DNA of 64,000 nucleotides from a virus. The position numbers and the translations under genes were made by a program. Location: positions 1 to 64,000 of IMG/VR virus record IMGVR_UViG_3300035698_007246; one strand, written 5' to 3'. A model generated the notes under the pieces. The model was not told the origin of the DNA and ran no database searches. It saw nothing but the letters and a program-made list of their open reading frames with translations. The first letter of the stretch is position 1. The number at the start of each line of letters is the position of its first letter. Positions 8,087 through 62,156 of the stretch are shown here, one piece after another.

Positions 8087-8689
8087 TTGATGATTACTGT
8101 GTTAATACTGTTGGTTATATTGTTTATTATAATTGGAACTGTTGTTTCTAATTGGAAATATATTGAAGAAAAATATGAATCACACAAAAAGAATTTTGCA
8201 ATAAAGACACATATAAAGAAAAGTCACCAATCTGTTAGAAATAATATTACCAATAGTTTTATTGGTGGTGATGTGGTTGGTGGAAATTCTATAAGCACCA
8301 CACAATCATTTGGCAAGACTACGGTAACTATAAACGGTAAAAAATATACTGGTATGGGTTCTTCTGTTATCAAGAATGGTAACGTTTACATTGGTGGAGA
8401 ACTAATGAATGATGATGATGATGTTGATTTATCAAATCATACCATTTCTGTTGAAGGTGATGTTGCAAGTTTAAGTACTGATTTGTCTGTTGTCGTTAAA
8501 GGTAGAGTTACTGGAGGAATTATTGCAGGTGGTTCTATCACATGTGGTGATGTTGAGGGTGATGTTAATGCACGTGGCGGTTCTGTGAATTGTGATAATG
8601 TCCGTGGGAATGTTGAAGCTCATGGCTCTGTGAATTGTGATAATGTTGGTGGAAATATTGACGCAATGGGGAGTGTGAATCATGGATAA
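8087..8689 (+). CDS. membrane-anchored bactofilin-like (beta-helical G-V/N repeat) protein
   Basis: N-terminal TM helix, then tandem short repeats (GDVEGDVNARGGSVNCDNVRGNVEAHGSVNCDNVGGNID) resembling bactofilin/DUF583-type beta-helix repeats. Confidence 0.4.
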   Translation: MMITVLILLVILFIIIGTVVSNWKYIEEKYESHKKNFAIKTHIKKSHQSVRNNITNSFIGGDVVGGNSISTTQSFGKTTVTINGKKYTGMGSSVIKNGNVYIGGELMNDDDDVDLSNHTISVEGDVASLSTDLSVVVKGRVTGGIIAGGSITCGDVEGDVNARGGSVNCDNVRGNVEAHGSVNCDNVGGNIDAMGSVNHG

Positions 8690-11555: not shown

Positions 11556-11692
11556 AAAATTGTGGTTTGAAAATATATAAATACTTATATATTTCAATTT
11601 TATAATGAGGAGGACATGGCGTTGCTTCCTTTTTGTGCTACTTCACAAATTACTTCTCATTATCTTTCTTTAACCTAAGTAGGGGTATCAAA

Positions 11693-12613
11693 ATGTCCAA
11701 AAGACGAACTACAAAAGAATTTATTCTCGAAGCGATTATTGTGCATGGTAATAACTATGATTATTCATTAGTCAATTATAAGAATTCTCAATCTAAAGTA
11801 AAAATAATATGTCCTATACATGGTGTTTTTGAACAAAATTCAAATTCACATTTACAGGGTTCTACATGTAAAAAATGTTCAGATTTGATAAAAGGTAAAA
11901 AATGTAGATTGACAACAGAACAGTTTATTGAAAAGGCAAAAAAGATTCATGGTGATAGATATGATTATAGTTTGGTTAAATATGATAATGTTCAGATTAA
12001 GGTGAAGATTATTTGTAAAAAACATGGTGTGTTTGAACAAAAACCAAGAAAGCATCTTTGTGAAAAACAAGGATGTCTTAAATGTAGGATTGATAATACA
12101 AGATGTCCAAATTTTATTGAACAATCAATTAAATTATTTGGTGATAAATTTAATTATGATGATGTTGATTATATTAACACTGATACAAAAGTAAAAATTT
12201 GGTGTAATGAACATAATCAATATTTTTTAAAATCTCCATATAAACATTTAAAAGGCTCAGGTTGCCATAAATGTAGAATGTCTAAAGGGGAACTTAAAAT
12301 TGAAAACTATCTTAAAGAAAATAATATCCAATTCGAAACAGAAAAGAAATTTCTTGATTGTAAAAATATTAAGCCATTACCTTTTGATTTTTATTTACCA
12401 GAAAAAAATGTTTTAATTGAATATGATGGTAATTTACATTTTAAGATAAATGAATATTTTGGTGGTGTTGATGGATTTATTAAAAGAGTTAAAAATGATT
12501 TAATCAAAACTACTTATTGTTTAGATAATGATATTATATTATTAAGAATCCCATATTGGGATTTTAATAAAATTGATGATTTATTATGTGGTATAAATAA
12601 TTTTGTTAAATAA
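11693..12613 (+). CDS. homing-endonuclease-like protein: 3x ~47-aa His/Cys repeat + C-terminal Vsr/DUF559-like PD-(D/E)xK nuclease domain
   Basis: Three tandem repeats (HGxxYDYSLVxYxNxxxKVKIICxxHGVFEQ...C.KC). C-terminal PLPFDFYLP...LIEYDG...H...ILLRIPYWDF resembles Vsr/DUF559-type restriction-endonuclease-fold domains. ATG at 11693 after GGGGTATCAAA. Confidence 0.45.
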   Translation: MSKRRTTKEFILEAIIVHGNNYDYSLVNYKNSQSKVKIICPIHGVFEQNSNSHLQGSTCKKCSDLIKGKKCRLTTEQFIEKAKKIHGDRYDYSLVKYDNVQIKVKIICKKHGVFEQKPRKHLCEKQGCLKCRIDNTRCPNFIEQSIKLFGDKFNYDDVDYINTDTKVKIWCNEHNQYFLKSPYKHLKGSGCHKCRMSKGELKIENYLKENNIQFETEKKFLDCKNIKPLPFDFYLPEKNVLIEYDGNLHFKINEYFGGVDGFIKRVKNDLIKTTYCLDNDIILLRIPYWDFNKIDDLLCGINNFVK

Positions 12614-21322: not shown

Positions 21323-21715
21323 ATGAGTTTATTGACTATGTTAAAAATAGGTCTTGATATACATGGTGTTATAGACATCAAACCTAAGATATATTCAAAA
21401 TTATCACGAAGATTGATAGAATTGGGACATCAGGTTCATGTGATTACAGGGCCTCATGTTACAATTGAATTGGTTAAAGAGTTATTTGGATATGGGATTT
21501 CCTATACCCATGTATTTTCTATCTCAGATTACCATAAAATGTGTGATACACCAATGAGATATGATGAAAAAGGCAATCCTTGGATTGATAAAACACTTTG
21601 GAACAAAACCAAAGCCGAATATTGCCATCGGGAAAAAATTGACCTACACATTGATGATAGTGCATACTATGGTCAATACTTCAAATCTACAATTTATTTA
21701 GAAATTAAAAAATAA
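21323..21715 (+). CDS. hypothetical protein (possible HAD-like phosphatase, weak)
   Basis: GLDIHGVIDIKP...IDDSAYY loosely resembles HAD motif I/IV. Not convincing. Confidence 0.3.
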   Translation: MSLLTMLKIGLDIHGVIDIKPKIYSKLSRRLIELGHQVHVITGPHVTIELVKELFGYGISYTHVFSISDYHKMCDTPMRYDEKGNPWIDKTLWNKTKAEYCHREKIDLHIDDSAYYGQYFKSTIYLEIKK

Positions 21716-21718
21716 CTC

Positions 21719-21747
21719 TTGACATCGTTTTCCCCATTAATTATATT
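21719..21747 (+). promoter_or_regulatory. sigma70-like promoter (TTGACA-N17-TATATT)
   Basis: CTCTTGACATCGTTTTCCCCATTAATTATATT. Confidence 0.55.
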
Positions 21748-46869: not shown

Positions 46870-46990
46870 TTAATGATTAGATTTAATTAAATTTTCTTCT
46901 GCGGTTAAAATTTGTAAATTAGAATAATGAAAACAATGTTGTTGCTCTTCAGGCTTTGATAAATTAAAAGAAGTACATGGTTTAACGTGG
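46870..46990 (-). pseudogene. C-terminal fragment of HNH homing endonuclease
   Basis: Encodes only IDHVKPCTSFNLSKPEEQQHCFHYSNLQILTAEENLIKSNH. About 80% nt identity to the 3' end of the HNH pseudogene at 59966-60544. Confidence 0.45.
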
Positions 46991-47240
46991 TCAATATAAT
47001 ACAAAAGGAGAAGTTGATAAATGGAAACGGAAACAGAAAAATTAAAAGAAAATGATTGCAAGTTAACCGACGCTAAAGGAGTAGTTGTGAAAACATTTAG
47101 ATTGCAGAAAATATTGGGAATATTTGGAAATGCTTTAATGATTTATTTGTTGCTTGGGTTTGTGGAACCAAATCGAATGTTTCAAGTTGCATTAATGTTG
47201 GGATGTTTTGGATATGTTAATGCAACGATTTGGAGAAATT

Positions 47241-48230: not shown

Positions 48231-48630
48231 AGAAGCTGATGTACAATGGAAGTTGCTAACTGATAGGATTGCAACTATTAAGAGAAGTGTGGGATATCTA
48301 ATTAAAGAACATATCTTGTATAGTGTGGTTCAAGAAAGTGTTGACCACATTGATGAGATATTAAATGATTTGATTACGTTCACTGAAAAACAAATCGGTG
48401 AAGATTTCAATGTTGTGTTGACTGATGTTGGTATTAAAACGATTCAAGTAATAAAATTAGTGAGAGAGCTTACTGGTAAAGGATTACGTGATTCTAAAGA
48501 GATTGTTGATAACGTTAATTTTGGTGATAGCCCAATGTGTATTGGTACTTTTAAATTGTGTGTGGCTTCTGATATTAGAGATAGATTTATCAAAGTTGGT
48601 GCAACTGTTTCAATTGAGGGGGTTAAGTGA
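48211..48630 (+). CDS. protein with ribosomal bL12 (L7/L12) C-terminal-domain-like fold
   Basis: VIKLVRELTGKGLRDSKEIVD closely parallels the bL12 CTD helix VIKAVRxxTGLGLKEAKDLVE. The C-terminal beta-alpha segment (KVGATVSIEG) also fits. Confidence 0.45.
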   Translation: MMGPTYKEADVQWKLLTDRIATIKRSVGYLIKEHILYSVVQESVDHIDEILNDLITFTEKQIGEDFNVVLTDVGIKTIQVIKLVRELTGKGLRDSKEIVDNVNFGDSPMCIGTFKLCVASDIRDRFIKVGATVSIEGVK

Positions 48631-48884
48631 TTATGAACATAATTGGAATTATATTAATAATAATGTTTTTGGTGACATGTATCACTATGTGGGTTTTCAT
48701 TGCAAAGATTTGTGCAGTACTAAGAACATTGAAAGCTATCCAGTCTGGTGTTGCAGTGTCAGTACGAGGTGTTGGAACAATAGTTGATGGTAAACTTAAG
48801 GACTATAAGTTATCAGGGTTTGATGTTGTAAAGGGTATTGTAAAAGGAAAAGATTTTTTGAAAGGGAAGATGAAAAATGATTGA
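48627..48884 (+). CDS. small membrane protein
   Basis: N-terminal TM helix. Confidence 0.4.
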   Translation: MIMNIIGIILIIMFLVTCITMWVFIAKICAVLRTLKAIQSGVAVSVRGVGTIVDGKLKDYKLSGFDVVKGIVKGKDFLKGKMKND

Positions 48885-49371
48885 AATATTAAAGAGTGAG
48901 ATTAAAGACGCAATGCGAAGCAGTCAATCTATCAGATTAAAATTGTTGAGAATGGTGATGTCCGAAATACAAAAGGTTGCCATCTCAGAGAAGCGTAAAG
49001 ACATCACTGAGGATGATTTAATCAAAGCGGTGACTTCTGGTATCTCTGAAAGAAAGAATGCTATTCTTAAATTCGATAAAGGTATTGCTGACATCATTAC
49101 AAAGAATGGTAGTATTGATAAAGAAACTGAAGATAAATCTAATCAAGGTATTGCAAAAATCAATGCTGAGATTGAGGTGTACAAAGAATTCCTTCCATTA
49201 CAATTGACTGATGATGAAGTTGAAGTATTGGTTGACAAGGCTATAGCTGGCACAGGTGCGACTTTAAGGAAAGAAATGGGACGTATAATATGTCGGGTTA
49301 AAACTGAAATACAATCTGGTGCTTATGAAATGAAGAGGTTATCGAAGATGGTGATGTCAAAACTTAATTAG
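48877..49371 (+). CDS. GatB/YqeY-domain protein
   Basis: LKSEIKDAMRSSQSIRLKLLRMVMSEIQK resembles the YqeY/GatB-C helical domain signature (LKxAMKAKDKxRLxVLRMLLSAIQ). Confidence 0.45.
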   Translation: MIEILKSEIKDAMRSSQSIRLKLLRMVMSEIQKVAISEKRKDITEDDLIKAVTSGISERKNAILKFDKGIADIITKNGSIDKETEDKSNQGIAKINAEIEVYKEFLPLQLTDDEVEVLVDKAIAGTGATLRKEMGRIICRVKTEIQSGAYEMKRLSKMVMSKLN

Positions 49372-49379
49372 GAGCAAGT

Positions 49380-49964
49380 ATGAAAGAAGAATTACGTTAT
49401 GATGAAAACACTAAGAAAGTGGTTACTCAAGATGAGTATGTCAAACAATATTTAAACAAGGAAGAAGACTCTGTTGAGAAGTTTAAAGGGTTGCCAATTG
49501 CAATTATTGGGTTTGATAGTGAAGCTGAAACCCTTAAGCATATCAAACGGGTTAATGATTTATTGTTAATGATGTCAAAGAAGTTAATTGACAGAGCAAG
49601 TGCTCATGATGCTTCAAAACTTAAGACTCAGGAGAAGGAACTCTTTGATATGTATACTCCTCGGTTAAAGGATGTGAAGTTTAATGATGATAATGAAGAG
49701 TATAATGAGCAGAAGAAAGATTTGGAACCTGCATTAAAACATCACTATCAAAATAATAGACATCACCCAGAGTATCATAAAGATGGTGTCAATGATATGA
49801 CATTGATTGATTTGGTTGAAATGCTTGTTGATTGGAAGGCAACAAATGAACGTCAACCCGATGGTAATGTGTTGAATTCAATTGATACATTAAAAGAGAC
49901 ATTTAAATTAACTAAACAGTTGGCTGACATTCTTAAGAATACAGTCAAGGATTATTTACAATAA
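49380..49964 (+). CDS. hypothetical protein
   Basis: 194 aa. His-rich patch HHYQNNRHHPEYH. Confidence 0.4.
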   Translation: MKEELRYDENTKKVVTQDEYVKQYLNKEEDSVEKFKGLPIAIIGFDSEAETLKHIKRVNDLLLMMSKKLIDRASAHDASKLKTQEKELFDMYTPRLKDVKFNDDNEEYNEQKKDLEPALKHHYQNNRHHPEYHKDGVNDMTLIDLVEMLVDWKATNERQPDGNVLNSIDTLKETFKLTKQLADILKNTVKDYLQ

Positions 49965-49974
49965 GGTTGAATAA

Positions 49975-50172
49975 ATGTTAGAAATTATTGGAGTAATTGC
50001 AATTATCATCTTGTTCTGTGTTATAGCTGTTGCTGCATGTGCGGTTTTAATGTTGGGTGGGTTTACAGATGACCGGGGGGTTATCTTGATTGGTCTTGGA
50101 TTAGCAGTGATTGATATATTAATGCTGTGGTTTGCAGTGGGTGATAGAATTGTTTTATTTTTTACAGGTTAA
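49975..50172 (+). CDS. small membrane protein
   Basis: Two TM helices. Confidence 0.4.
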   Translation: MLEIIGVIAIIILFCVIAVAACAVLMLGGFTDDRGVILIGLGLAVIDILMLWFAVGDRIVLFFTG

Positions 50173-50206
50173 GGGGAAAACGTTGAAAGAGTGAAAGAGG
50201 GATAAC

Positions 50207-50611
50207 ATGAAGAAGTCTACAGGACTTGAAGTAAGAAAGTTAGAGAATCAAATTGCCAGCATTGATTCAAAGATTGGTATTCTTCAAAACGATGTGGTAG
50301 TAAAAATAACTGAGCTTAAAATTCTACGGAGTAGACGACAGGCTTATCAAGATAGATTAAATCAAATCAACAATGTTGAGTTGACAGTATCAGACCATGC
50401 GTTGATTAGATATATGGAAAGGGTTCTGGGGTATGATGTTGAATCACTTCGACAGGAAATACAGAGAAGTGCCAATCCATTGTTTAGTCAGTTGAAGGTT
50501 GACTGTCAAATCCCAACAAGAAATGAGCATGGAAAATTCAAAGTTATAATAAAACATAATAATATAGTCTCGGTTATTCCGGGGATAGGAAGTAAACATG
50601 AAAAAAAGTAA
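50207..50611 (+). CDS. hypothetical coiled-coil protein
   Basis: GAGGGA RBS. Heptad-like N-terminus. Confidence 0.4.
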   Translation: MKKSTGLEVRKLENQIASIDSKIGILQNDVVVKITELKILRSRRQAYQDRLNQINNVELTVSDHALIRYMERVLGYDVESLRQEIQRSANPLFSQLKVDCQIPTRNEHGKFKVIIKHNNIVSVIPGIGSKHEKK

Positions 50612-50769
50612 GTTATATTTTTTAAGCGTAATGCCTTTTGGGTTGGTTATAATGCCATTTATGTTATTAATTGGTGGAACACTTGGGTGGATACTGTTAG
50701 GTATTCAGCTTACACTGTTGGCTGTGCAGTTATGTGCAGCAATTCTTTATGCGAAATCTTAAAAAATCC

Positions 50770-50798
50770 TTGACTTGGATTTAAGAAAATATTAAATT
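50770..50798 (+). promoter_or_regulatory. sigma70-like promoter (TTGACT, -10 TAAATT)
   Basis: TCCTTGACTTGGATTTAAGAAAATATTAAATT. Confidence 0.4.
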
Positions 50799-50813
50799 AT
50801 AATTATTTAAAAA

Positions 50814-52991
50814 ATGGAGATTGATGTGAAATATATCAAATTTGGTAATGGTTATCTTGTTCAGCAAGAAGTACAAAGCCAAGCAACAACAACTAAGAAG
50901 GTTAAAGAAAAAACGAACCATATTTGGATTTATGATAGAAGTTATTCAATGTCATATGAATTACCCAATATGATTAATCAGTTGGTTACATTGTCGGAGA
51001 ACCTTCCAAAAGGTGATACTATTACTCTTGGCTACTTTTCCAGTGAAGGTGAGTACAAGTTTATCATCAAGGGTTTTAAAATCACTAACAAGGCTGATTA
51101 TGCTTTTCTTGAAGCAACAATCAGAAAGAACTCTCGTCCTATTGGGTGCACATGTTTTAGTGAGATTATTAATGAAACTGATGAAGTCATCGAAGACTTG
51201 TCCTTGTTCTCAAAGACATTCAGTTTTGCTTTCTTTACAGATGGGTATCCTGTGGTTCACAATTACCAAAAAGAGATTGACAATATCAGAATTGGTATTG
51301 ACAAAATCAAAGGTAAGCTCACCACAGCAATGTTTATTGGGTGTGGTCATTTTTACAACAAACCGTTGATGACAAAGATGGCAGAACGTATTGGTGGAAT
51401 GCTCATCCATAATGATTCCATTAAAGAGTTCACTCCTACCATCACTCGTCTTGTTCAACTGTCTGAATCGTCAGAACCTAAGATTGAAGTGAAGTCACCG
51501 TTTGAAAAACCTGTTGCGGTTTACACAGTGACAGACCAAGGTGTCGTACTTAATGATATCGAAGATGGTAAGCTATCAGTTTCACCTGAAACTGGTAAGT
51601 CAGTGAAGTTATACTACATCGTTGATGATGTGAGTGGTCTCGCTGCAAAAAAGGTTACTCCAGTGGAACTTGGAGTTGAAGCTGTTTATGGTGGAACGTT
51701 GGTGTTATGTCAACAGATGAAGACTGATAAGGCAATGGAACTTGTTGGTATTGTTGGTGATAAGTATTTCATTGACAAACTTACAAATGCATTCGTGATT
51801 GACGAATACGGTAAAGTTGAAAATGAATTGAATGATGCTATTCATAACGAAGACGAACGTTTTAAGAATGGTGCTGATAAGAATTATCTCCCTAAGTCTG
51901 ATGCTTTTAATGTTTTTGAGTTACTTAATATATTAAAAGATGATGATAATTCAGTTTTTTATCCTTATGACAAGCGTTTTAAGTATGAAAAGATTTCTAA
52001 GGGAACTGTGCTTGAAGATGGCTATTCAAAATTTAAACCATCTTCTGATAACGAATGTTCTTTTAATGAATTGGTGTGGCATAAGTCAAGACTGAATTTA
52101 TCAGTCAGAATTACATCAAAGGGAACTATTGAGTTACAAGAACGTGATGGTAAGAATGCAGGGGATTATGGTTTTACCCAGATTTTTCCAACATGGGTAT
52201 ATCGAAATTATAGTTTTGTGAAAGATGGTAGACCTAATATTAAAAAGTTTTATGTTGGTACTTCTAAAGAAACGTATGAAACATTGAAGAGTCATGGTAT
52301 TGTAGTTGATGATACATTTAAAAAGAATGGTATTTATGGATTAGATATTTCAAACTTACCTTCTATGAATCGTGGTATGGCAAATGGTAATACAAATGGT
52401 ACTGAACTTTGTAGAAATGTTTATTCTGAATTAGATTTGATGGCTCAATTAAAAGTGTATAAATGGTTTCTTAAAGAAGAATTTCCAGATGATGATAAAG
52501 ACCCAACATCATTTTCAGAAGAGCAGAAAGGATTTCTTGAAGCTAATGGAATTTTGGTTGACAAAGGAGGAGTATATGCACCACCTGTGAAATCTGGAAT
52601 AGAAAGTTTTGATTATTATATGGTTAAGCGTTTCGAAATTAAAGTTAAAAGTTTAACCAGTTTACCATCTTTGAATGCAGTGTACAAGAAATTGAACTCT
52701 GGTAAGAAGTTGACATTATCTGAATCATTATTAAATGAGTCTATTGAAAAGTATGATTCATATAAAGATGACAATGATAGTTTACTTGAAAGGAAAAAGT
52801 ATCTTGAGGATACGATTACTCAATTGAAAATTAAATTGAAACCGATTAGGAATGATATTCAAAAATGTAAATTTGCTATCATACTTGGGAGACAGTGGTT
52901 TCAAGAATTTTCAAGTCGAGAACAAACTCAACTTGAAGTTGATGGTAATACATTTAATTTTCTTTTAAGTGACGAAAAGGTTAAGATATAG
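50814..52991 (+). CDS. large vWA-domain protein
   Basis: N-terminal IWIYDRSYSMS (MIDAS DxSxS) followed by about 500 aa without recognised motif. Confidence 0.4.
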   Translation: MEIDVKYIKFGNGYLVQQEVQSQATTTKKVKEKTNHIWIYDRSYSMSYELPNMINQLVTLSENLPKGDTITLGYFSSEGEYKFIIKGFKITNKADYAFLEATIRKNSRPIGCTCFSEIINETDEVIEDLSLFSKTFSFAFFTDGYPVVHNYQKEIDNIRIGIDKIKGKLTTAMFIGCGHFYNKPLMTKMAERIGGMLIHNDSIKEFTPTITRLVQLSESSEPKIEVKSPFEKPVAVYTVTDQGVVLNDIEDGKLSVSPETGKSVKLYYIVDDVSGLAAKKVTPVELGVEAVYGGTLVLCQQMKTDKAMELVGIVGDKYFIDKLTNAFVIDEYGKVENELNDAIHNEDERFKNGADKNYLPKSDAFNVFELLNILKDDDNSVFYPYDKRFKYEKISKGTVLEDGYSKFKPSSDNECSFNELVWHKSRLNLSVRITSKGTIELQERDGKNAGDYGFTQIFPTWVYRNYSFVKDGRPNIKKFYVGTSKETYETLKSHGIVVDDTFKKNGIYGLDISNLPSMNRGMANGNTNGTELCRNVYSELDLMAQLKVYKWFLKEEFPDDDKDPTSFSEEQKGFLEANGILVDKGGVYAPPVKSGIESFDYYMVKRFEIKVKSLTSLPSLNAVYKKLNSGKKLTLSESLLNESIEKYDSYKDDNDSLLERKKYLEDTITQLKIKLKPIRNDIQKCKFAIILGRQWFQEFSSREQTQLEVDGNTFNFLLSDEKVKI

Positions 52992-53235
52992 ATTCGTTTA
53001 AAATTGATTCAATGTTTTTGAATTTATGATATGGAATTCTGATAAGCTGGATATTGTTTTGTTTACAATATTCAGTTTTGATTTTATCATTATGTTGTGT
53101 TTCTCCACCAAATTGGATAATTGATTTATAATGTTGCACACCGTCATATTCAATGAGTGTACCGTGTTGTAGTAAATAGAAATCAAATGGGAGAGTGGAT
53201 TTATTTTTTACAACCTCTAAATTAACTATTGACAT
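52981..53235 (-). pseudogene. truncated PD-(D/E)xK (Vsr/DUF559-like) homing-endonuclease remnant
   Basis: LPFDFYL...LIEYDGVQH...LIRIPY is homologous to the C-terminal domain of the 11693-12613 product. Lone minus-strand ORF. Its 5' end runs into the + strand promoter. Confidence 0.4.
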
Positions 53236-53257
53236 CACCTATACCATTAATTATATT
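53229..53257 (+). promoter_or_regulatory. sigma70-like promoter (TTGACA-N17-TATATT)
   Basis: ACTATTGACATCACCTATACCATTAATTATATT. Confidence 0.55.
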
Positions 53258-53280
53258 CTTTTGGATAGGAGGAATATATT

Positions 53281-53793
53281 ATGAAATATTGTGACTGTGG
53301 TGCAGAGTTACCAACAAATAGACATCGTGTTTGTGATGATTGTAAGAAAAAAAAGAGACGAGAATATGTGGTTGATTATCGTAAAAAGAATATTGATAAA
53401 ATTCGAGAACGAACCAAAGAATATAGTGTTGTGTATTATAAGAAAAATAAAGATAAAATATCAGAATGTGCTAAAAAATATTATGAGAAAAATAAAGATA
53501 AATTTAAAGAATATAGTGATGATTATTATGAGAAAAATAAAGATAAAATATTAGAACGTGATAAAAAATATTATGAGAAAAATAAAGATAAAAAATTAGA
53601 ACGTGTTAAAAAATATTATAAAGACAATAAAGATAAAAAAATAGATTATGATAAAGAATATTATAATAACAATAAAGATAAAATAATAGAACATCATAAA
53701 GAATATCGTAGATTAAAATCAGTCCCATCAAAAGAATATTGGGATTTGAAGGATGAAATAGATTTAACAAAGGAGATGATTAAAAATGGCTAA
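53281..53793 (+). CDS. zinc-ribbon protein with tandem 15-aa KEYYxxNKDKIxERxK repeats (copy 1)
   Basis: N-terminal CDCG...CDDC ribbon, then about 8 tandem 45-nt repeats. C-terminal RRLKSVPSKEYWDL. Paralog of 54005-54595. Confidence 0.5.
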   Translation: MKYCDCGAELPTNRHRVCDDCKKKKRREYVVDYRKKNIDKIRERTKEYSVVYYKKNKDKISECAKKYYEKNKDKFKEYSDDYYEKNKDKILERDKKYYEKNKDKKLERVKKYYKDNKDKKIDYDKEYYNNNKDKIIEHHKEYRRLKSVPSKEYWDLKDEIDLTKEMIKNG

Positions 53794-53795
53794 GA

Positions 53796-53969
53796 AGTTT
53801 TCATTATATAATGAAGCTACAGAATCAATAGAAGCATTGTCCGAAGCAAGAGAATAATTTCGTAAATGTGATATTTCTGTTAACGAAATCAAACAGCATG
53901 TGAATGTTACTAATACTATGAGTAAAGCGATTAAAGCTAAAATTGATGTTGAAAAATTACAACAGGGAT
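53796..53969 (+). pseudogene. disrupted paralog of small gene 54588-54773
   Basis: MAKKFSLYNEATESIEALSEARE then a premature TAA. The downstream homolog segment (ISVNEIKQHVNVTNTMSKAIKAKIDVEKLQQG) is in another frame. Confidence 0.4.
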
Positions 53970-54004
53970 AATTTAAGATAGAGATTGATGTCGGGGAATA
54001 TATT

Positions 54005-54595
54005 ATGAAATATTGTGACTGTGGTGCAGAGTTACCATCAATAAGACATCACATTTGTAGTGATTGTAAGAAAAAAAAGAGGCAACAATATATAGTTGAT
54101 TATCGTAAAAAGAATATTGATAAAATATCAGAATGTGGTAAAGAATATTATAAAAACAATAAAGATAAAATAACAGAACGTCATAAAGGATATTGTGAAA
54201 ACAATAAAGATAAAATATCAAAATGTCATAAAGAATATCGTAATAACAATAAAGATAAAATATCAGAATGTGGTAAAGAATATTATAAAAACAATAAGGG
54301 CGAAATAGTAGAACGAAGTAAAGAATATTATAATAACAATAAAGATAAAATAACAGAACGTAATAAAGGATATCGTGAAAACAATAAAGATAAAATAGCA
54401 GAACGTAATAAAGGATATCGTGAAAACAATAAAGATAAAATAGCAGAACGTAGTAAAGAATATTATAATAACAATAAAGATAAAATAACAGAACGTCATA
54501 AAGGACGTCGTAGATTAAAATCAGTTCCAGTAAAAGAATATTGGGATTTAATAGATGAAATAAATTTAACAAAGGAGTTAATTAAAAATGGCTAA
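54005..54595 (+). CDS. zinc-ribbon protein with tandem 15-aa NKDKI repeats (copy 2)
   Basis: Same architecture as 53281-53793 with about 9 repeats. Confidence 0.5.
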   Translation: MKYCDCGAELPSIRHHICSDCKKKKRQQYIVDYRKKNIDKISECGKEYYKNNKDKITERHKGYCENNKDKISKCHKEYRNNNKDKISECGKEYYKNNKGEIVERSKEYYNNNKDKITERNKGYRENNKDKIAERNKGYRENNKDKIAERSKEYYNNNKDKITERHKGRRRLKSVPVKEYWDLIDEINLTKELIKNG

Positions 54596-54773
54596 GAAAT
54601 TTTCAATAAGTAAAGAATCTGAATTATCAATCCAAGCACTGTCTGAAGCAAGAGAAATGTTTCGTAATGATGAGCTTGATGTTAATCAAGTTAAGCAACA
54701 TATAAATCTTGCGAATGCTATGAGTAAAGCACTAAAGGCAAATGTTGAAATTGAAAAATTGAAACAAGTTTAA
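54588..54773 (+). CDS. small hypothetical protein (intact copy)
   Basis: MAKKFSISKESELSIQALSEAREMF... Overlaps previous stop (ATGGCTAAG within ...AATGGCTAAG). Confidence 0.4.
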   Translation: MAKKFSISKESELSIQALSEAREMFRNDELDVNQVKQHINLANAMSKALKANVEIEKLKQV

Positions 54774-54789
54774 ATTGTTGACTTGCTCG

Positions 54790-54816
54790 GTGACTTGCCC
54801 GGGCAAGTCAGTTTAA
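54790..54816 (+). terminator. rho-independent terminator
   Basis: GACTTGCCCGGGCAAGTC perfect palindrome then AGTTT. Confidence 0.55.
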
Positions 54817-54833
54817 AATAAAAAGGATTTAAT

Positions 54834-55079
54834 ATGGAAATTAGAGATACCGATGGACACCAACATACAGTACATGATTTGAAGTTAATGTATAACAGCA
54901 ATGAAATAGGTAGAAGAAATATGATATCATATTTAAATGATTATCATAATGGTATTAATGAAATACTTGACGATGTGTGCTCTTCTGATGAACAGTTATT
55001 GAAAATAAAGGTATTGAATGATACATTGCATGGCTTTTACAAACATAGATGTGAAGAGCAAACGGAGATGAAAGTATGA
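54834..55079 (+). CDS. hypothetical protein
   Basis: AAAGGA RBS. Confidence 0.4.
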   Translation: MEIRDTDGHQHTVHDLKLMYNSNEIGRRNMISYLNDYHNGINEILDDVCSSDEQLLKIKVLNDTLHGFYKHRCEEQTEMKV

Positions 55080-55242
55080 AAAAAGGCTTGATGCATGTAC
55101 ATGGAATTATTAGAAATATCCCTGTAACTATTGTTAATGAAACTGATGAGTACTGGGAATATACTTCAGACCATGATAAGAATACAAAAAGGGTTTATAA
55201 AAAAGATAACCCATATAGTTCTATTGATATACAGGAGTAATT

Positions 55243-55494
55243 ATGAACAAAGAACAAGAACATGTGTTTAATGATATTCTTCAGTTGGCACATACTGTTG
55301 TGAGATTAGGTTCATGGTTTCAAAATGATTTTCAAACCATGCTTAATAACGGAGATGCAAATATAAATGATTTGAAACTCACTAGAACTAAAATGGAACA
55401 TCACTTTGATAGTGTGGTTGGTGAGATAAACAAATTAAAAGAACGTGGTGTTGATGTAATGGATGGTATTATTGTGGTGGAGGAAAAAAGATGA
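55243..55494 (+). CDS. hypothetical protein
   Basis: CAGGAG RBS. Confidence 0.4.
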   Translation: MNKEQEHVFNDILQLAHTVVRLGSWFQNDFQTMLNNGDANINDLKLTRTKMEHHFDSVVGEINKLKERGVDVMDGIIVVEEKR

Positions 55495-56255
55495 GCTGGA
55501 TTTTAACAGATGGATATATCAGAGATACAATAGGACTTGGTGAGTCTGCTGTATGTCAATTTAGAAATACACCAGAACTTCATGGGGAAGACTTTGATAA
55601 AAAGGTTTACAAAATTGTAACTGATAATGACGAGGTGTTTAACTTCTTTAATTGTTTGTTTATGAAAAATAAAAAACATAGAATAGAAACATTAATCCTT
55701 GATAATAAAACATGGTTTAAAGAAAAAACATATATTAATGGACTTGCTAAAGAAAAAGTCACGAATATAAAAGGTCCTGATTTAGAATCAAAGTATCTAT
55801 ACATCTATAATTCTCAAACAAAATTGGCAACCATCATGCGGAATGGTCATCTTGATAAACATTATATGTATTATGATGATGGTAAACTGTTTAAATTGAT
55901 AGATTCGGATGTGGTTATTGGTTATGAGTATGATGACAAAGGGAATTTAATAATAAAGAGATTCGAATACAAACAGGGAAAAAATATATTATATTATCAT
56001 GTGTATGATGATGATAACAATTTAGTTGCAATGACAACCACCAATGGTGGGTGGGCACACTATACATATAATAATAAGGGGAGTGTGTTGACACATACTA
56101 ATTCTACACAACGTTTTGAATATACATATGCTGCTGATGGTGTGACAAAGATTGGAATGGTCAAAGGATATGATAGATGGGATTACATTAAAGGTACAAA
56201 GAATGGAAAGCTATTAAAATTTGATGTATCAAAGACAATAATACATAGGAGATAG
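55491..56255 (+). CDS. hypothetical protein
   Basis: ATGA coupling. Y/D-rich. Confidence 0.45.
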   Translation: MSWILTDGYIRDTIGLGESAVCQFRNTPELHGEDFDKKVYKIVTDNDEVFNFFNCLFMKNKKHRIETLILDNKTWFKEKTYINGLAKEKVTNIKGPDLESKYLYIYNSQTKLATIMRNGHLDKHYMYYDDGKLFKLIDSDVVIGYEYDDKGNLIIKRFEYKQGKNILYYHVYDDDNNLVAMTTTNGGWAHYTYNNKGSVLTHTNSTQRFEYTYAADGVTKIGMVKGYDRWDYIKGTKNGKLLKFDVSKTIIHRR

Positions 56256-59514: not shown

Positions 59515-59992
59515 AAAACAAAAGAAATTAAAAACAATAGATATTGAACTTGCGATAGTAAATTCTTTATTTAAAGTTAGGCGGTATTTAGTTACTCCTA
59601 ATGTATATTGGGGATTAAATTTTCACTATGAACTTGATATGGTTGTCGTTACGGGTGCTCGTTATGCATATGAGATAGAAATCAAAACAAGTAAAGCTGA
59701 TACTATAAGAGATAAAAAGAAGGCACATCAGCACATATCAAACAAAATCAAGTATCTTTACTTTGCTATACCCGACTATGGTGAAGATTGGATAGAACAT
59801 ATCCCGGAACGAGCTGGGATTATTTTAATTAAAAAGAAAAATAATGGTCATTTATTTGGTGAAATTGTTAGAAAACCTAAAATGAATAAAGGATGTCGAA
59901 AATTAACCGACCAAGAATATATGAAACTTGGTCAGCTAAATTCAATGAGATTATGGAATTTGAAGAAAAAATTAAAGAAGTTGAGTATCTGA
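59495..59992 (+). CDS. PD-(D/E)xK nuclease-fold protein (putative)
   Basis: ELDMVVV ... AYEIEIKTSKAD provides D...E-x-K in the usual spacing. Confidence 0.35.
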   Translation: MAIRKVKKQKKLKTIDIELAIVNSLFKVRRYLVTPNVYWGLNFHYELDMVVVTGARYAYEIEIKTSKADTIRDKKKAHQHISNKIKYLYFAIPDYGEDWIEHIPERAGIILIKKKNNGHLFGEIVRKPKMNKGCRKLTDQEYMKLGQLNSMRLWNLKKKLKKLSI

Positions 59993-60544
59993 TTTAATTA
60001 AGTTGTCTTGAGCTGATAATATCTGAAGATTGGAATAGTGGAAGCATTGTTCCTGCTCTTCAGGTTTAGATAAATCAAAAGAAATACATGGTTTGATATG
60101 GTCAACATGAAATTCTTGACCTGTATAGTTATTAATATCAAAGTCAGTGTATCCATTATCAATTGCGGTTTGTTGGAGATGTTCTTTGAGGTATTCAATT
60201 GAACAGCCTAACAGTTTAATTGTTGAATTTGATTTGTTTTTGCCTTCAAGGGCATACCATATTCTATTTCTTAAATTACATTTTAATTTGTAATTAATAT
60301 CTGACTTACGTTTTTTAATGTTTCTTTTTGATTGCTTTTGATTTAACTTTGTTTTATTTTTATTGTAGTATTGTTTATTGGTGTTTAAAATTTTATTTTT
60401 GTTTTCAACATAATTTTGTTTATGCCAATCTTTTCTACATATTTTGCAGTGGTTTCAATAACCATCTTTAGACGCTTTTCTTTTGTAAAATTCAGAAATG
60501 GGTTTAGTTTGATTGCACTTGGTGCATGTTTTTGTAGTAATCAT
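59966..60544 (-). pseudogene. HNH homing endonuclease with in-frame nonsense codon
   Basis: Minus-strand reading: MITTKTCTKCNQTKPISEFYKRKASKDGY-stop-NHCKICRK...FHVDHIKPCISFDLSKPEEQEQCFHYSNLQILSAQDNLIKSD. TGA where TGG is expected (DGYWNHC). Only non-+ gene of this size. Confidence 0.5.
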
Positions 60545-60665
60545 TGTAGATACTCCCTAATTAAGTTAAAAATAAATGAGAAGTAATCTTTTGAATTAGG
60601 CAAAAGAAATGGCTTGCAATCCACTGTCCTTCTCATATAATTATTTATACAAATTCAAATTAACT

Positions 60666-60695
60666 ATTGACATCATTTACACAATTAATTATATT
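60666..60695 (+). promoter_or_regulatory. sigma70-like promoter (TTGACA-N18-TATATT)
   Basis: ACTATTGACATCATTTACACAATTAATTATATT. Confidence 0.5.
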
Positions 60696-60722: not shown

Positions 60723-61367
60723 GTGGTAGCAAAATGTTCGTATGTGATGCCATACAAAGAAATAACTAAAAAAAAAGAGCATGAATTAATATCAAATATA
60801 AAAACTGGATGTAAAGAATCTGAAAAGGAATTGTTTAATAATAAAATCAATCTTATTATAAAACTCATACAAAAATATTCTTTAAATAGTAATTGGATTG
60901 AAATGAATGACTTAATTCACGAGGCATATTTTGGGTTTAGGAAAGCTGTTGATAAATATAATGGGGAGTTTGCATTCAATACATATCTTCGTCAATGGGT
61001 TATCGCCAAAGCTCAAATGTTTTACCATAGAATCAAAGGTGGTATGAGCAATAAGACTCCGTATGTTAATAAACAGGTGTATATATTTGTTGGTGGGGAT
61101 ACTGGATATGATTTAATGTATTCTGATTACGATACAGAACCTGGATGGATGAGAGAACCTGACCCCATTGATTTTAATAGGTTCACTGAATTAACTAAAG
61201 GTGAACGGAGAGCTATTGATTTATATATTAATAAAAAGAAAACTGTGATTCAGATGGCAAAGGATAGGGGTGTGACGAAACAAGCTATATTTGGTGCGGT
61301 GTTGCGAGCCAAAACTAAATTAAAGAAACATTTTTTAAAAAATGTATTGACATACCCATCCCCATAA
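60723..61367 (+). CDS. sigma-70-family RNA polymerase sigma factor (regions 2 and 4)
   Basis: Region 2-like DLIHEAYFGFRKAVDKYNGEFAFNTYLRQWVIAKAQ. Region 4 HTH-like LTKGERRAIDLYINKKKTVIQMAKDRGVTKQAIFGAVLRAKTKLKK. AGGAGA RBS. Confidence 0.5.
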   Translation: MVAKCSYVMPYKEITKKKEHELISNIKTGCKESEKELFNNKINLIIKLIQKYSLNSNWIEMNDLIHEAYFGFRKAVDKYNGEFAFNTYLRQWVIAKAQMFYHRIKGGMSNKTPYVNKQVYIFVGGDTGYDLMYSDYDTEPGWMREPDPIDFNRFTELTKGERRAIDLYINKKKTVIQMAKDRGVTKQAIFGAVLRAKTKLKKHFLKNVLTYPSP

Positions 61368-62119: not shown

Positions 62120-62127
62120 AATAACTA

Positions 62128-62156
62128 TTGACGTCACTTGTGTCATTAATTATATT
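62128..62156 (+). promoter_or_regulatory. sigma70-like promoter (TTGACG-N17-TATATT)
   Basis: ACTATTGACGTCACTTGTGTCATTAATTATATT. Confidence 0.5.

Follow-up and report, generated by a model that had tools for sequence, protein, structure and literature searches.

In the 64,000-nucleotide stretch of viral DNA analysed here (positions 1 to 64,000 of IMG/VR record IMGVR_UViG_3300035698_007246, referred to below as the window), positions 53281-54816 hold a cassette of four genes on the + strand: two genes for repeat proteins, A1 and A2, each followed by a small gene, B1 and B2 respectively (Table 1). The repeat proteins share homology with the arm that homing endonucleases carry in addition to their catalytic domain, and contain no recognisable nuclease domain. 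The A-B module is duplicated in tandem, is equipped with expression signals and is reproduced across independent assemblies. The explanation preferred here, to which a probability of about one half is assigned, is that A1 and A2 are selected, nuclease-free endonuclease derivatives, and we infer from their architecture that they would bind without cutting.

A1 and A2 are paralogues, 59% identical (expectation value E 7e-69), and are organised in the same way. Both start with MKYCDCGAELP...C..CKKKK, a CxC-x11-CxxC motif at residues 4-21, proceed with an array of 15-residue units and end in a common 30-residue tail, RRLKSVPxKEYWDLxDEIxLTKExIKNG. In A1, unit 1 is followed by a 4-residue vestige ('EYSV') that comes in addition to the seven full units. 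Tandem Repeats Finder detects a 45-nt period at 53434-53706 in array 1 (6.1 copies, 81% matches, score 301) and at 54106-54503 in array 2 (8.8 copies, 84% matches, score 488), with an additional 135-nt super-period in A2. Across the 16 units of the two proteins, Y2 and N6 are present in all, K9 in 15 and I10 in 13, and the variation among units is spread over positions 1, 3, 4, 5, 11, 13 and 14 instead of being confined to one pair. Another 45-nt tandem repeat, unrelated in sequence to these arrays, is present at 8583-8669 (+; 2.0 copies, 83% matches) inside an open reading frame (ORF) at 8087-8689. Long antisense ORFs run through the arrays at 54003-54572 (-; 189 amino acids, aa) and 53596-53770 (-; 33-54 aa); they are not genes but arise because the repeated codons have no stops in their reverse complement.

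In both modules A and B overlap by 8 nt, ATGGCTAA, and both B genes begin with MAKKFS. B1 contains a single in-frame TAA at codon 24 (53855-53857), beyond which 37 codons stay open in the same frame and bring the gene to the length of B2. An earlier note on this DNA had described this arrangement of two tandem proteins made of 45-nt repeats, each followed by a small MAKKFS gene, and this description was recovered with some corrections. About nine units were rightly counted in the second protein, while the first holds seven and a vestige in place of about eight. The premature stop reported in the first small gene is present; the accompanying frameshift is not, all 61 codons being in one frame. 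The statement that one copy is decaying went too far, as the damage is a single nonsense codon in B1 and both A genes appear intact. Fusion of A to B by programmed frameshifting was considered and rejected: B lies in the +1 frame of A, and the -1 frame past 'T AAA AAT' meets a stop within 7 codons. An alternative genetic code behind the in-frame TGA (in an HNH gene described below) and TAA is unlikely because long ORFs tile the window under table 11.

The repeat is widespread. A phmmer search of 1.84 billion cluster representatives with A2 returned 9130 relatives at E<=1e-3, counted as clusters at 50% identity, and 869 at E<=1e-10, with a best E of 5e-43. The consensus unit is x-Y-[YR]-x-x-N-K-[ED]-K-I-x-E-x-x-K, and a logo built from 1395 units reads x-Y(84%)-Y/R-x-x-N-K(73%)-E/D-K(53%)-I(59%)-x-E(46%)-x-x-K(61%). 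Exact 15-residue spacing is observed in 921 of about 1150 neighbouring anchor pairs, and the arrays are typically composed of 6-10 units. A1 and A2 possess the two traits by which the family was delimited, namely a tandem array of units that are exactly 15 residues long and conform to x-Y-[YR]-x-x-N-[KR]-[ED]-K-[ILV]-x-E-x-x-K and, directly beside the array, a putative Cys/His cluster, which is modelled at a predicted local distance difference test score (pLDDT) of 59-65. The PHROG labels of the repeat are phrog_17714, 36724, 7091 and 1035, the first being matched by A1 at E 1.8e-16. The PHROG matches of A1 and A2 cover the array only and fall in families of unknown function and in one annotated as HNH endonuclease. 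Neither protein has a match in Pfam (E<=1), NCBIfam or PADLOC, and the Pfam models of NUMOD1/3/4, TAL and PUF in particular are not matched even at E<=1. B is likewise without a PADLOC match, and no defence or anti-defence annotation is obtained from that source for either gene. The repeat family is uncurated, with no Pfam or NCBIfam model and no solved structure. No description of the repeat was found in the literature, and the only PDB matches of the family alignment are chains of the I-TevI catalytic domain, which are reached through GIY-YIG members and not through the array.

The architecture of the relatives links this array to endonucleases. In some of the best relatives of A2 among 5.8 billion proteins, a GIY-YIG domain (PF01541) is located N-terminal of the array; in others of them, an HNH (PF01844, PF13395, PF14279) or Endonuclease_7 domain is located C-terminal of it. 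The Pfam domains recorded in 149 of the top 150 relatives are HNH (20), HNH_5 (15), GIY-YIG (9), Endonuclease_7 (4), Bro-N (2) and Helitron-like (1). Many of the remaining relatives are of the H-x-D-H type, missed by Pfam and recognised by phrog_1035 ('endonuclease VII'), and in one relative (P0129) the array is joined to a Vsr/DUF559-like nuclease. A domain of at least 70 aa stands on one side of the array in 139 of 170 relatives (C-terminal in 73, N-terminal in 66) and on both sides in 28; the array-only architecture of A1 and A2 is found in 3 of the 170. When the domain is C-terminal, a Cys cluster is situated directly on the N-terminal side of the array in 49 of 73 cases, and when it is N-terminal, no Cys/His cluster follows the array in 51 of 66. 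The GIY-YIG protein P0001, encoded on a 279-kb contig, ends straight past its array, which is the sole candidate for its targeting part. In A1 and A2, no nuclease domain is detected with Pfam (E<=1), NCBIfam, PADLOC or PHROGs, and the tail matches nothing. Equating the tail with the 'RRxxK...EW..L' segment that precedes the HNH domain was tried and abandoned (E >= 0.38, phmmer, 30-aa tail against 174 relatives). Judged by sequence, A1 and A2 thus share homology with one part of these endonucleases without being endonucleases themselves. The proposal made in the earlier note, that these modules derive from homing endonucleases, is well grounded in these results, the array being an endonuclease module that A1 and A2 carry without a nuclease domain.

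The cassette is surrounded by expression signals. The promoter boxes at 53229-53257 constitute the best sigma-70-like site in 52500-55500. The promoter site is part of a 34-nt motif, AACTATTGACATCA-N8-ATTAATTATATT, present in four copies in the window, all on the + strand, where shuffling predicts 0. One of the copies, at 60662, lies in front of a sigma-factor-like gene (60723-61367, phrog_351). The motif probably corresponds to a phage-specific class of host sigma-70 promoters. An AGGAGG is positioned 8 nt upstream of the A1 ATG, and the ribosome-binding sites (RBS) of B1 and B2, AAGGAG, are embedded within the A tails. Downstream of B2, a G+C-rich hairpin is more stable than all of its shuffled versions; its T-run is weak and the site is not counted by a strict terminator scan, and it is a probable terminator or RNA-stabilising element. 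No comparable closing hairpin occurs between the two modules, so that all four genes seem to belong to a single transcription unit. Nowhere in the window is the gathering score of an Rfam family attained.

The history of the duplication can be read from the modules themselves. Homology between them starts about 10 nt 5' of the A start codon and stops at the B stop codon, so that the duplicated unit is RBS-A-B; the spacer left between the modules is 23 nt. Outside the repeats, two end regions could be aligned, and over these, with their flanking sequence, identity is 74-77%. In a 16 x 16 matrix of the 45-nt units, the edge units are orthologous between the arrays (A1.1/A2.1 37/45, A1.7/A2.9 43/45), and the inner units are homogenised within their own array (A2.7/A2.8 44/45; A2.2, A2.6 and A2.9 43-44/45). 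The module was therefore duplicated first and the arrays changed internally later, which clearly involved gain and loss of repeats over evolutionary time. Ratios of nonsynonymous to synonymous substitution rates (omega) were obtained with the Nei-Gojobori method from few sites: omega is 0.34 for B1 versus B2, 0.23 for B codons 25-61, past the B1 stop, with 1.16 synonymous substitutions per site (dS), 0.5 for the A N-terminus and 0.75 for the A tail. The value of 0.23 past the stop indicates that the B1 stop is recent relative to the duplication, and the duplicate has been kept through a dS of about 0.14-1.2. About 130 single-base routes lead to a stop codon in each of A1 and A2. In simulations that apply the flank divergence to the arrays and ignore gene conversion between units, a neutral copy stays open with a probability of about 0.025-0.03 at 0.07 substitutions per site per lineage, the lowest divergence estimate, and with a probability of at most 0.001 at 0.15 substitutions per site. 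Since both copies are open, selection on the A reading frames is argued, and A1 and A2 both appear to be intact and held open in this way.

In order to evaluate the assembly, the window was compared with contigs from independent assemblies. Five of them (ENA ERZ27315525 and ERZ27316532; JGI 3300005935, 3300025736 and 3300031227) are 100% identical to the window over 48389-54239 by BLAST, all of A1 included. The exact A1 protein is present in ERZ27315525 and in the three JGI contigs, the exact protein of the upstream 725-aa gene in ERZ27316532, and the exact B2 protein in three contigs, one of which originates from Logan SRR8526178. The TAA of B1 is covered by three contigs (L005, L006, L007) at 100% identity, and L005 and L006 reach the start of A2, reproducing the order A1-B1-A2. 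Three others (L002-L004) contain the end of array 2 together with B2 and the genes downstream of it; in L002, 5.5 units at the 3' end of this array are reproduced. Among the contigs found, none bridges 54240-54250. The contigs end at internal repeats that are exact over 36-54 nt, 54 nt being the longest; breaks at such repeats are the usual behaviour of short-read assemblers and not evidence of heterogeneity. JGI 3300031227 is a metagenome of Ace Lake, Antarctica (PMC9324843), and the source phage is from an Antarctic lake.

These comparisons also bear on the variability that the earlier note had expected. No variation in repeat number was seen, array 1 being identical in five assemblies and several samples and the middle of array 2 being unbridged. 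The homogenised inner units testify to gain and loss of repeats in the past, with no present-day variation alongside. Phase switching is unsupported because changes by 45-nt units stay in frame. The concern raised in the same place, that the repeats or the second copy might come from the assembly, is answered for 48389-54239 by the five identical contigs. For a comparison of repeat numbers among related phages, also suggested there, the search returned no close relative, and the relatives of the vWFA gene upstream share no flanking gene with the window.

Structure prediction with AlphaFold2 (26-sequence alignment) gives for A2 a model with a mean pLDDT of 86.8, above 90 across the array, and a predicted template modelling score (pTM) of 0.38. 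The array is modelled as a long kinked helix composed of 14-residue helices broken by one residue, the invariant Asn, and forming in places one 44-residue helix; the Cys knuckle is the part modelled poorly. Structural matches of the model are weak and limited to coiled coils. According to simple wheel arithmetic, the most conserved positions, I10, Y2' (i+7) and N6' (i+11), share one face of the helix within an arc of 40 degrees, flanked by K7, K15 and R3 on one side and by E1, E4, E8 and E12 on the other. B2 is predicted to be a helical hairpin (helices 9-26 and 32-59, pLDDT 86.8, AlphaFold2) for which no structural relatives were found and, among the 5.8 billion proteins, no sequence match other than itself.

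The proposed explanation can be summarised as follows. A1 and A2 would be intact descendants of the arm, a Cys4 knuckle followed by 15-residue helical repeats, that stands beside the catalytic domain in free-standing homing endonucleases. The RBS-A-B unit would have been duplicated in tandem long ago, the number of units in each array changing later by internal duplication and loss, and B1 would have been knocked out recently by a nonsense codon. The four genes would form one transcription unit under the phage-specific sigma-70-type promoter, closed by the strong hairpin, with B translationally coupled to A. The proteins may still hold nucleic acid (DNA being the most probable), and would do so with the Zn knuckle and the basic side of the long kinked helix; such binding is suggested because the array is the only other part present in many GIY-YIG relatives. 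As non-cutting binders, they could serve as a regulator or as protectors of target sites against related endonucleases, a role that would be comparable to that of CapR, from the Vibrio PLE satellite, or to I-TevI when it represses. B, the predicted helical hairpin, may be a partner of A.

Remnants of other endonuclease genes are found in the same window. Next to the cassette, an 85-aa ORF matches phrog_559 (E 8e-25, profile positions 332-411 of 607) and is 49% identical (E 5e-19) to the C-terminus, residues 243-318, of the enzyme encoded at 11633-12613. The latter, its full-length paralogue, is composed of three tandem domains of about 70 aa (HG..YDYS...C..H...C.KC) and of a C-terminal Vsr/DUF559-like nuclease. 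The HNH gene at 59972-60544 is a nuclease-bearing relative of A1 and A2 in the same genome: it matches phrog_1035 (E 3.6e-17, residues 3-186) and, weakly, phrog_17714 (E 7e-4), and its CxxC-x18-CxxC motif is longer than the CxC-x11-CxxC of A1 and A2. In the window sequence it contains one in-frame TGA (60455-60457, codon 30, 'KDGY*NHCKIC') and is otherwise open over 190 codons. The earlier note had called this locus, given as 59966-60544, an HNH pseudogene with the same pattern; the CxxC...CxxC motif, the roughly two repeat units and the HNH/EndoVII-type C-terminus are there, while the damage is limited to that TGA and the gene is intact apart from it. B1 and the HNH gene are thus two endonuclease-related genes, each disabled by one nonsense codon. 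A 42-residue HNH tail (YIDHVKPC...NLIKSN), 71% identical to the HNH gene (E 4e-23), has neither a start codon nor the N-terminal part.

Apart from these loci, the window is devoted to replication and nucleotide metabolism on the + strand of a large phage of low G+C content (about 31%), with genes for an NAD-dependent DNA ligase, an RNA ligase, a helicase and a vWFA protein 27% identical to proteins of PBS1 and AR9. No close relatives of the phage were found in INPHARED (megablast against phages), IMG/VR, JGI contigs or protein collections. Relatives of the vWFA gene obtained by scanning JGI metagenomes have 46-65% aa identity and have no other gene in common with the window, and a 254-aa protein encoded downstream matches only itself. 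In two contigs of other metagenomes (JGI Ga0114918_10005857 and Ga0307377_10018877), the homologue of the 725-aa vWFA protein (46-47% identity) is bordered by an 89-nt intergenic gap and unrelated neighbours, with neither endonuclease remnant nor repeat cassette, and synteny with the window is wholly lost.

Table 1. Coordinates, in the window, of the cassette genes, their expression signals and endonuclease-related loci
Feature	Position	Strand	Description
Gene A1	53281-53793	+	170 aa; Cys motif, 7 x 15-residue units (53374-53700), 30-aa tail
Gene B1	53786-53971	+	61 codons, in-frame TAA at codon 24; 8-nt overlap with A1
Gene A2	54005-54595	+	196 aa; Cys motif, 9 x 15-residue units (54098-54502), A1-like tail
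Gene B2	54588-54773	+	61 aa, intact; 8-nt overlap with A2
Sigma-70-type phage promoter (predicted)	53224-53257	+	TTGACA, 17 nt, TATATT; 11/12 consensus positions
34-nt motif copies	21714-21747, 53224-53257, 60662-60695, 62123-62156	+	
G+C-rich hairpin	54779-54810	+	Minimum free energy -21.5 kcal/mol, z-score -5.4, 0/200 shuffles as stable
Endonuclease remnant	52981-53238	-	85 aa, C-terminal Vsr/DUF559-like nuclease part only; abuts the cassette promoter
Free-standing homing endonuclease	11633-12613	+	326 aa; phrog_559 E 1.7e-75; looks intact
HNH gene	59972-60544	-	Zn ribbon, about 2 repeat units, HNH/EndoVII-type nuclease C-terminus
HNH tail remnant	46873-46998	-	42 residues, between helicase and epimerase genes

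Several observations weigh against the preferred explanation and have to be set beside the alternatives to which they lead. Decay is clearly active in this genome, with endonuclease remnants throughout and a broken B1. A1 and A2 could accordingly be neutral debris, that is, functionless leftovers of homing-endonuclease genes stripped of their nuclease and heading for deletion. The nuclease-only piece next door, the HNH tail, the TGA-interrupted HNH gene, the nonsense codon in B1 and the described cycle of degeneration of phage endonuclease genes (PMC2988022) are all in keeping with such an outcome. So is the omega of 0.5-0.75 in the A flanks, a modest constraint drawn from few sites. The argument for selection is further tempered by the simplified treatment of the arrays in the simulation and by the independent assemblies, which are all clonal and therefore silent on selection. 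Debris is nevertheless considered unlikely: both A frames are open despite the numerous routes to a stop (neutral probability about 0.03 per copy or far less), the key residues of the unit are conserved in all or most of the 16 units, a consensus promoter, strong ribosome-binding sites and a terminal hairpin belong to the cassette itself, and the duplicate has been retained through the synonymous divergence given above. The remaining reservations concern function. DNA binding by the array would follow from architecture, and the roles of the 30-aa tail and of B are guesses, both being without relatives. The conserved I/Y/N stripe of the modelled helix would suit a coiled-coil interface no less than a surface contacting DNA. 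An array acting as a rod and not as a reader is retained as an alternative for this reason; it is judged about as improbable as debris. The array would be a right-handed coiled coil (15/4 = 3.75 residues per turn) or a single-helix spacer, which oligomerises endonucleases or sets the distance between Zn finger and active site, and A1 and A2 would operate through protein contacts, by poisoning or regulating array endonucleases of their own or of co-infecting phages, or as a scaffold with B. The narrow stripe with K/R on one side and E/D on the other, the 'coil containing protein' annotation of relatives in Nahant Vibrio phages, and the place of the array between Cys cluster and C-terminal domain in 49 of 73 relatives, which resembles the 'protein ruler' linker of I-TevI (PMC2988022), are consistent with a rod. 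A net charge of +17 to +20 and only about 2 hydrophobic positions per 15 residues would, however, make a poor homomeric core, and many GIY-YIG relatives have no other candidate DNA-binding part.

Two further alternatives are very improbable. In one, A would be the targeting arm of a split homing endonuclease whose catalytic part is the adjoining 85-aa Vsr-like ORF; the genes are neighbours, and P0129 fuses the array to the same type of nuclease domain. The ORF is, however, only the last third of the 11633-12613 enzyme, is devoid of about 20 residues just N-terminal of the aligned block relative to this paralogue, lies on the opposite strand without a good ribosome-binding site, and has a start that overlaps the -35 box of the cassette promoter. 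In the other, equally remote, the duplication or the repeat numbers would result from short-read mis-assembly. The stretch of array 2 unbridged by independent contigs and the fact that the short-read contigs all break in array 2 or at sequences common to A1 and A2 would agree with this, but the modules are only 74-77% identical outside the arrays, A1, B1 and the junction A1-B1-A2 recur with 100% identity, the last 5.5 units of array 2 are found again in L002, and the longest exact internal repeat is just 54 nt. A more ambitious version of the preferred explanation is also conceivable, though doubtful, and is held to be less probable than debris or rod: the 15-residue unit would be a modular solenoid, nucleic-acid-reading or distance-setting, common to thousands of mobile nucleases of the HNH, EndoVII, GIY-YIG and Vsr types, in which the variable positions (3, 4, 5, 11, 13, 14) encode target preference, A1 and A2 being nuclease-free versions kept with B in order to occupy sites. 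If so, A1 and A2 with B could shield the phage DNA from related endonucleases of competing phages.

Locally, the cassette is another case of the break-up of homing-endonuclease genes within a phage genome, in which the non-catalytic arm has seemingly been kept, duplicated and given its own promoter, a first step of domestication comparable to CapR. More generally, the repeat family is joined to nuclease domains of at least four kinds, on either side of them. Once it is clear whether the array serves to read DNA, to measure distance or to oligomerise, the way in which a large share of free-standing phage endonucleases find their sites would be explained. Being array-only, A1 and A2 are convenient natural constructs for this question. 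Decay and domestication of endonucleases are both already known; the array-only architecture is rare in the family, and the A-B pairing and its tandem duplication have no database counterpart.

The closest known proteins are the phage endonucleases of the phrog_1035 type, in which, as in A1 and A2, an N-terminal Cys cluster or Zn ribbon precedes 15-residue units (Y-x-x-x-N-K-E/D-K-I). They are phage-borne, often encoded on the strand opposite to their neighbours and present in several copies per genome. They continue into a C-terminal H-x-D-H...N nuclease of about 100 aa, whereas A1 and A2 have an unrelated 30-aa tail followed by the orphan gene B. Besides the HNH gene of the window itself, the type is exemplified by gp03 of Vibrio phage 1.246.O, between terminase and portal, by VPH1220G2_0053 of Vibrio phage 1220 g2, surrounded by tail genes of the other strand, and by a 281-aa ORF of Pseudomonas phage JBD44 that lacks an annotation; these three, from annotated phages, occupy classic positions of free-standing endonucleases. 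The JBD44 ORF (KU199710.1, 1914-2759) has a TTG start and is flanked by gp39 and by gp37, a tail-fibre gene; the record has in its place only a 50-aa 'gp38', called in another frame inside the ORF. Proteins combining GIY-YIG (PF01541) and the array (P0001, P0002, P0005, P0015 and others) have the same period and consensus as A1 and A2, and in some the C-terminal end is a C-x-C-G...H...H finger reminiscent of the 'YCDCG' with which the latter begin. Their order is reversed, with the catalytic domain N-terminal, and A1 and A2 have no GIY-YIG motif.

Other systems are comparable by design. TALE, PUF, PPR and NUMOD1/3/4 likewise consist of tandem helical repeats that are attached to, or usable with, nucleases, and the variable positions 3, 4, 5, 11, 13 and 14 of the present unit alternate with conserved ones; the unit differs in being only 15 residues long and a single helix, and a likeness to TALE-type repeat-coded binders is only an idea suggested by analogy. 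I-TevI is similarly modular: its catalytic domain is tied to a DNA-binding part by a long, Zn finger-containing connector that acts as a 'protein ruler', and the enzyme becomes an autorepressor where cutting fails, binding without cutting being what represses (PMC2988022). Its 75-aa linker is non-repetitive, unlike the array of A1 and A2. The same source describes a cycle of invasion, degeneration and loss of phage endonuclease genes (PMC2988022). The best precedent for a possible role of A1 and A2 is CapR of the Vibrio cholerae PLE satellite, which corresponds to the small Cys4 N-terminal DNA-binding part of phage homing endonucleases without the catalytic domain and was shown by experiment to act as a DNA-binding repressor (Netter et al. 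2021, PMC8096241). CapR belongs to a T5orf172-associated family without a 15-residue array, and it is by description, not by sequence, that A1 and A2 are likened to it.

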